Below are positions 1,902 to 1,924 of a DNA stretch of 64,000 bases, in pieces. The translations under genes were made by a program, and so were the position numbers. Within the stretch, counting starts at the first letter, position 1; each line of letters opens with the position of its first letter. The stretch lies in assembly GCF_053078305.1 (NCBI RefSeq), contig NZ_CP166879.1. The stretch is one strand, 5' to 3'. The notes under the pieces were generated by a model. It was not told the origin of the DNA and made no database searches. It was given only the letters and a program-made list of their open reading frames with translations.

Positions 1902-1924
1902 ACTTTAGTTACAACATCCTTCTT
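1902..1924 (-). other. Ter site (Tus-binding replication terminator, TerB position) immediately upstream of tus
   Basis: Minus-strand sequence AAGAAGGATGTTGTAACTAAAGT contains the conserved Ter core GTTGTAACTA; located in the tus promoter region as TerB is in K-12. Confidence 0.6.

Follow-up and report, generated by a model that had tools for sequence, protein, structure and literature searches.

The closest described counterparts of the site analysed here are the Ter sites of Escherichia coli K-12, and TerB in particular. TerB lies within the tus promoter and serves as the operator for tus autoregulation (PMC8707476, PMC8347550). TerC and TerG are high-affinity lock formers, TerC being the most used terminator, and TerF and TerH fail to form the lock because of a T(5) to G change on the C(6) strand (PMC8707476). 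Leading-strand synthesis has been found to halt at T(3)/A(4) (PMC4499146). In a survey of E. coli phylogroups, 18 of the 21 SNPs found in ter sites fell at positions 1-5, 19-23 or 7 (Goodall et al., 2021; PMC8347550). [quoted passage not shown]

We analysed a window of 64,000 nucleotides (contig NZ_CP166879.1 of assembly GCF_053078305.1) that carries one Ter site, AAGAAGGATGTTGTAACTAAAGT, on the minus strand, with Ter position 1 at window position 1924 and Ter position 23 at 1902. This was the sole match to the TerB 23-mer in the 64 kb when up to three mismatches were allowed, and none was found in 100 dinucleotide-preserving shuffles. The site sits in the 75-bp spacer between rstB and tus, within the gene order rstA-rstB-TerB-tus-fumC, and 11 nt separate position 23 (1902) from the A of the tus ATG (1891). 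The published location of TerB near tus agrees with this placement (PMC8707476). Synteny and sequence together identify the site as TerB, which is also what the initial annotation had called it. We considered whether it might instead be another Ter site or a pseudo-Ter, given that its core, AGGATGTTGTAACTAA, is also that of K-12 TerC and TerG in the published Ter alignment. That reading is excluded by the synteny and the 11-nt distance from the tus ATG, and by the 3' part of the site (...CTAAAGT) and the adjoining GGTTAATATTATG, both identical to K-12 TerB. TerC and TerG likewise have a G at position 7, immediately following G6, but they occupy other chromosomal loci, have other outer bases and are unlinked to the tus promoter. 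The features of the window are collected in Table 1.

Table 1. Features of the window discussed in the text, with positions counted from its first nucleotide.
Feature	Position	Strand	Remarks
TerB, Tus-binding replication terminator adjoining tus	1902-1924	-	G6 and positions 8-23 as in K-12 TerB; allele in 5 complete genomes
tus, DNA replication terminus site-binding protein, 309 aa	962-1891	-	Same coordinates annotated in 14EC033
Inferred extended -10 of the tus promoter, TG-c-TATAAA	1924-1932	-	Last base is Ter position 1
Inferred -35 of the tus promoter, TGGTCA	1947-1952	-	17 nt upstream of TATAAA
rstB, sensor histidine kinase, neighbour upstream of TerB	1967-3268	-	Anchors the rstA-rstB-TerB-tus-fumC synteny
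Prophage integrase	33447-34721	-	
Prophage Exo VIII-like protein, 839 aa	35078-37597	-	
Prophage Rha/Ash regulator	38074-38928	-	
Prophage DNA methylase	50659-51717		
Prophage tRNA-Met/Arg/Arg	51758-52009		
Prophage NanS-p-like sialate esterase	53647-55629		
Prophage large terminase	61106-63091		

The rstB-tus spacer was aligned directly with that of K-12 MG1655 (NC_000913.3, 1,682,000-1,686,000). TerB at the equivalent place in K-12 (2228-2250 of the extracted locus) reads AATAAGTATGTTGTAACTAAAGT, and 21 of the 23 positions are identical in the window, the exceptions being T to G at position 3 (window 1922) and T to G at position 7 (window 1918). Positions 1-2, 4-6 and 8-23 are the same in both, as is the sequence onward to the tus start; full 23/23 identity was not obtained. 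The initial annotation, which had asked for such an alignment, was right that the site beside tus departs from K-12 TerB. Its estimate of two or three mismatches among the first nine bases settles at two, three being one too many, and the 14-base 3' core that it had matched to K-12, GTTGTAACTAAAGT, is indeed identical, together with positions 8-9. It had also allowed that its version of the K-12 sequence might be wrong, so that the difference would be unreal and the site simply the reference one. This can be dismissed, since the AATAAGTATG... that it gave for K-12 is exactly the sequence in NC_000913.3 and the window differs from it at positions 3 and 7. In other respects the locus resembles its K-12 counterpart closely: it has the same rstB-TerB-tus arrangement, orientation and distance to the tus ATG, it shares G6, A4-A5 and the core at 8-23, and the partner Tus is 99.4% identical.

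To place the two differences within the species, TerB alleles were counted in 5,426 complete RefSeq E. coli genomes with 39-base megablast queries. The 28-base seed in such a query always covers Ter positions 2-18, so a match demands that allele; the alleles themselves were initially found in 12 genomes sampled across the identity range. The 601 bp around TerB matched 5,423 of the 5,426 genomes, mostly at 95-99% identity. The K-12 allele, AATAAGTATG over Ter positions 1-10, was present in 2,364 genomes, followed by AATAAGGATG (AATAAGG; CFT073, ST131) in 1,373 and ATTAAGGATG (ATTAAGG; O157:H7, O55:H7, ATCC 8739) in about 1,260. Smaller classes were ATAAAGTATG (ATAAAGT, with a one-base insertion; 98200, TUM14771) in 269 genomes and GTTAAGGATG (GTTAAGG; A28, RMDEC364) in 47. 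The window allele, AAGAAGGATG (AAGAAGG), was found in five: 14EC033, 100416, CUWW06, Res13-Sevr-PER07-33 and GDSC2227PM. At least five other TerB alleles thus circulate in E. coli, and the alleles listed jointly cover about 98% of the 5,426 genomes.

The two variant bases differ greatly in frequency. At position 7, G occurs in about 49.5% and T in about 48.5% of the 5,426 complete genomes, and the T7 of K-12 is merely one of two major states in E. coli. Position 3, in contrast, is rarely G: the window allele in its exact form accounts for 5 of 5,426 genomes, and AAGAAGTATG (AAGAAGT), which would combine G3 with T7, was found in none of the 5,426. The K-12 TerB 23-mer is itself not the species sequence; no more than some 44% of complete E. 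coli genomes carry it, and it is accordingly the core (G6 plus positions 8-19), not the full K-12 string, on which Ter searches should rely.

The rarity of G3, and a closest complete genome that reaches just 99.5% identity to the window over 25 kb, might raise the suspicion that the two variant bases reflect faulty sequencing or assembly of the source genome. We consider this extremely improbable. The exact 39-mer recurs in five complete genomes that were sequenced independently and differ in host and country of origin; in three of these, all 601 bp around the site agree with the window. G7 is carried by about half of all genomes. G3 is real because it is present in five independent assemblies. 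The strain variation that the initial annotation had offered as one explanation is borne out by the recurrence of the same allele in the same local context in these five genomes, and from the sequence comparison the two differences from K-12 are ordinary variation of this kind and not a new feature. By the same comparison, the host of this TerB is an E. coli strain other than K-12.

The flanking sequence gives an indication of how the window allele arose. Between window positions 1500 and 5792, the only differences from TUM13936 are at 1922-1923 (...TATAAATTAAGGATG... in TUM13936, ...TATAAAAGAAGGATG... in the window). TUM13936 belongs to the common class with TerB ATTAAGGATGTTGTAACTAAAGT (together with O157:H7, O55:H7 and ATCC 8739), which shares G7 with the window and, in TUM13936, the same flanking haplotype for more than 4 kb, but has TT at positions 2-3 where the window has AG, a tandem double substitution. 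The window allele most likely derives from the common ATTAAGG haplotype through one tandem substitution, TT to AG, at Ter positions 2-3; two successive single changes, or a short patch of recombination, could also have produced it. Since G3 occurs with T7 in no genome, G3 would have arisen on a G7 background. When window positions 1-25000 were compared with the 5,426 complete RefSeq genomes named E. coli, a set without those named Shigella, the best match had 99.5% identity, its differences being evenly spread (about 5 per kb). Over these 25 kb, the genomes with the window allele were no nearer to the window than non-carriers were, and the block shared around TerB is therefore short (about 0.8 kb in the comparison with 14EC033). 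The rarity of G3 is compatible with a recent neutral mutation and also with mild counter-selection.

We used the conservation of individual Ter positions to evaluate the expected function of this allele. Position 6 and positions 8-20 were constant in 14 E. coli sequences and 24 loci of other species (including E. albertii, E. whittamii, other Escherichia, Citrobacter, Cedecea and Franconibacter), and positions 1-5 and 7 varied in the same set. In the window, position 6 is G on the Ter-reading strand (window 1919), which places C(6) on the complement; position 5 is A (window 1920), giving the A:T pair required there, and position 4 is also A:T. The strict core at positions 8-19 (ATGTTGTAACTA) is present, and no base from 8 to 23 differs from K-12 TerB. 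Judged from these bases, every feature with a known part in Tus binding or the C(6) lock (G6, A4-A5 and the core at 8-23) is intact. Both changes fall in the variable classes of the Goodall et al. (2021) survey (PMC8347550), but that survey covered about 17 genomes, and the G3 allele is too rare to be expected there. The allele counts in 5,426 genomes confirm the earlier small-sample view that only TerB positions 1-5 and 7 are free to vary.

The orientation of the site is likewise that of K-12. GC skew is positive on the plus strand of the window, so the normal fork travels to higher coordinates and meets position 23, the permissive face, first; the orientation of TerB relative to tus is as in K-12. 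The permissive face is thus turned toward the normally arriving fork, as expected of a fork trap and as seen in K-12. By the mechanism described for TerB, a Tus monomer would bind the site, and a fork that reaches position 1 first (the clockwise fork in K-12, one moving toward lower coordinates in the window) would unwind the DNA up to GC(6). C(6) would then flip into a pocket of Tus and lock the complex into a polar barrier, while a fork from the position-23 side would displace Tus. In its second role, TerB would act as the operator by which Tus represses its own promoter. Within this scheme G7 and G3 are natural polymorphisms at change-tolerant positions, G3 being lineage-restricted and situated in the uncontacted outer bases. 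It is therefore very probable that this is a TerB with two natural polymorphisms relative to K-12 whose Tus binding and fork arrest would be essentially unchanged.

The cognate Tus is encoded in the same genome, adjoining TerB. The tus product matches PDB 1ECR/2EWJ over its full length (E 3e-207) and is identical to K-12 Tus at 307 of 309 residues, the changes being I23A and T158S. The C(6) pocket is formed by I79, F140, H144 and G149, and neither changed residue is known to belong to this pocket or to contact DNA. Both PDB 1ECR and the RefSeq annotation of a near-identical genome place the true start of tus at the ATG at 1891 (MARYDL...). A GTG start at 1903, proposed by the ORF lister, would make the protein four codons longer and begin inside TerB; it was discarded as an artefact, as the crystallised protein begins MARYDL. 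We also looked for a compensatory change in Tus and rejected the idea: I23A and T158S are the only changes, and the same Tus accession, WP_001295399.1, is annotated in strains with three different TerB alleles, which argues against co-variation of protein and site.

The outer Ter region is not entirely inert, given that T(5) to G abolishes the lock in TerF and TerH and that synthesis stops at T(3)/A(4), and a base change at position 3 may affect the kinetics of the lock. The calculated stacking energy of positions 1-8 is -9.0 kcal/mol in the window and -6.8 kcal/mol in K-12; compared with K-12, the non-permissive end gains about 2.2 kcal/mol of stability from the two AT to GC changes.

The same outer bases would lie in the tus promoter region. 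A simple sigma-70 consensus scan upstream of tus called no tus promoter in the window or in K-12, because the hexamer TATAAA is without the terminal T that the scanner demands. The Cappable-seq supplements have no start-site entry near the K-12 TerB/tus coordinates, and a 2023 review has nothing on the tus promoter. We used a comparative footprint in place of the consensus scan, based on 26 sequences from Escherichia, Citrobacter, Franconibacter and others. The pattern TGnTA(T/C)A(A/T/C)A was found just upstream of the tus-adjacent Ter site in most of the 26, with a variable spacer, and TGGTCA or a one-base variant of it stands at 17-nt spacing in Escherichia and Citrobacter, where the spacer itself is non-conserved. 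In most of the species compared, the -10 hexamer of tus ends in A and not in the usual T. This footprint would place Ter position 3 at about -5, in the discriminator, position 7 at about -1 and position 8 at about +1 of the tus promoter.

[quoted passage not shown] The footprint, TGGTCA-17-TGnTATAAA, sets the end of the hexamer at Ter position 1, and at five promoters a non-template G at -5 lengthened the half-life of the open complex 10- to 50-fold relative to -5C, as reported for Haugen 2006 in a review (PMC10911233). A T to G change at -5 could accordingly cause a modest change in tus promoter kinetics. The stacking difference over positions 1-8 and the arrest of the replisome at T(3)/A(4) point in the same direction with regard to the lock. 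We nevertheless regard a functional effect as unlikely. The -5 and -1 assignments are predictions from the footprint, the relevant contrast at -5 is T versus G, which is smaller than C versus G, and negative autoregulation by Tus would buffer any change in promoter strength and in tus expression. In addition, positions 1-5 differ freely among species with no constraint evident, and G7 alone is present in half of E. coli.

A related proposal concerns the tandem TT to AG change itself, which might reflect more than drift because it lies at the leading-strand halt T(3)/A(4) and at about -6/-5, in the tus discriminator. Either the outer part of TerB would be a small hotspot of mutation caused by fork arrest and restart, as could be argued from the six or more alleles that differ solely at positions 1-3 and 7, or -5G would stabilise the open complex and, in this lineage, raise the autoregulatory set-point of Tus. 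We give this proposal little credence. If G3 or G7 did alter tus promoter kinetics or the lock, these alleles would be natural variants for studies of the Tus autoregulatory set-point; there is no sign of such an effect here. The preferred reading is that the window TerB is a known element with a rare, neutral-looking allele, to which little biological weight attaches. The classes of variation involved have already been published, and what is new is only the specific rare G3 allele and its frequency.

A different alteration of the promoter region was seen in strain KTa005 (NZ_CP147084.1), where the interval from rstB to tus contains a transposase gene of the ISEcp1 family (about 1-1500 of the extracted locus), just upstream of TerB. 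The ISEcp1 junction falls exactly at the inferred tus -35, changing TGGTCA to GGGTCA, about 35 nt upstream of TerB, and the remaining rstB-side sequence is located elsewhere in the chromosome. The insertion may perturb tus expression in KTa005.

Other Ter-like sequence in the window was also evaluated. The octamer GTTGTAAC occurs twice in the 64 kb against 1.6 expected, no more than chance. Its second copy, at 26323-26330 on the plus strand (context ACAGATGTTGTAACCATTG), was not accepted as a Ter site, since with A at position 6 and C at position 18 it lacks both G6, the base of the C(6) lock, and T18. It lies inside an 808-aa gene of the ynfE/ynfF type. Within TerB itself, as in every Ter site, the invariant core at positions 8-16, ATGTTGTAA (window 1909-1917, minus strand), reads as a Met-Leu-stop mini-ORF. 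With G7, the AAGGA before it resembles a ribosome-binding site yet directly abuts the ATG, and the mini-ORF is probably meaningless.

The far end of the window is occupied by a mosaic lambdoid prophage, which extends from 33447 to beyond 64000 and adjoins rspB, the site of Qin in K-12 (Table 1). The late genes show 91-93% identity to phages of the PhiR12 type and to Stx2a-converting phages, and no single record accounts for over 29% of the 25-kb query. Stx phages carry stx in a slot between the phage tRNAs and nanS-p. In the window, the corresponding slot downstream of the prophage tRNAs (52010-53646) contains no stx genes; it holds a 167-aa ORF (52107-52610), or a shorter form of it that begins at an internal Met (MFGIFKKK...).
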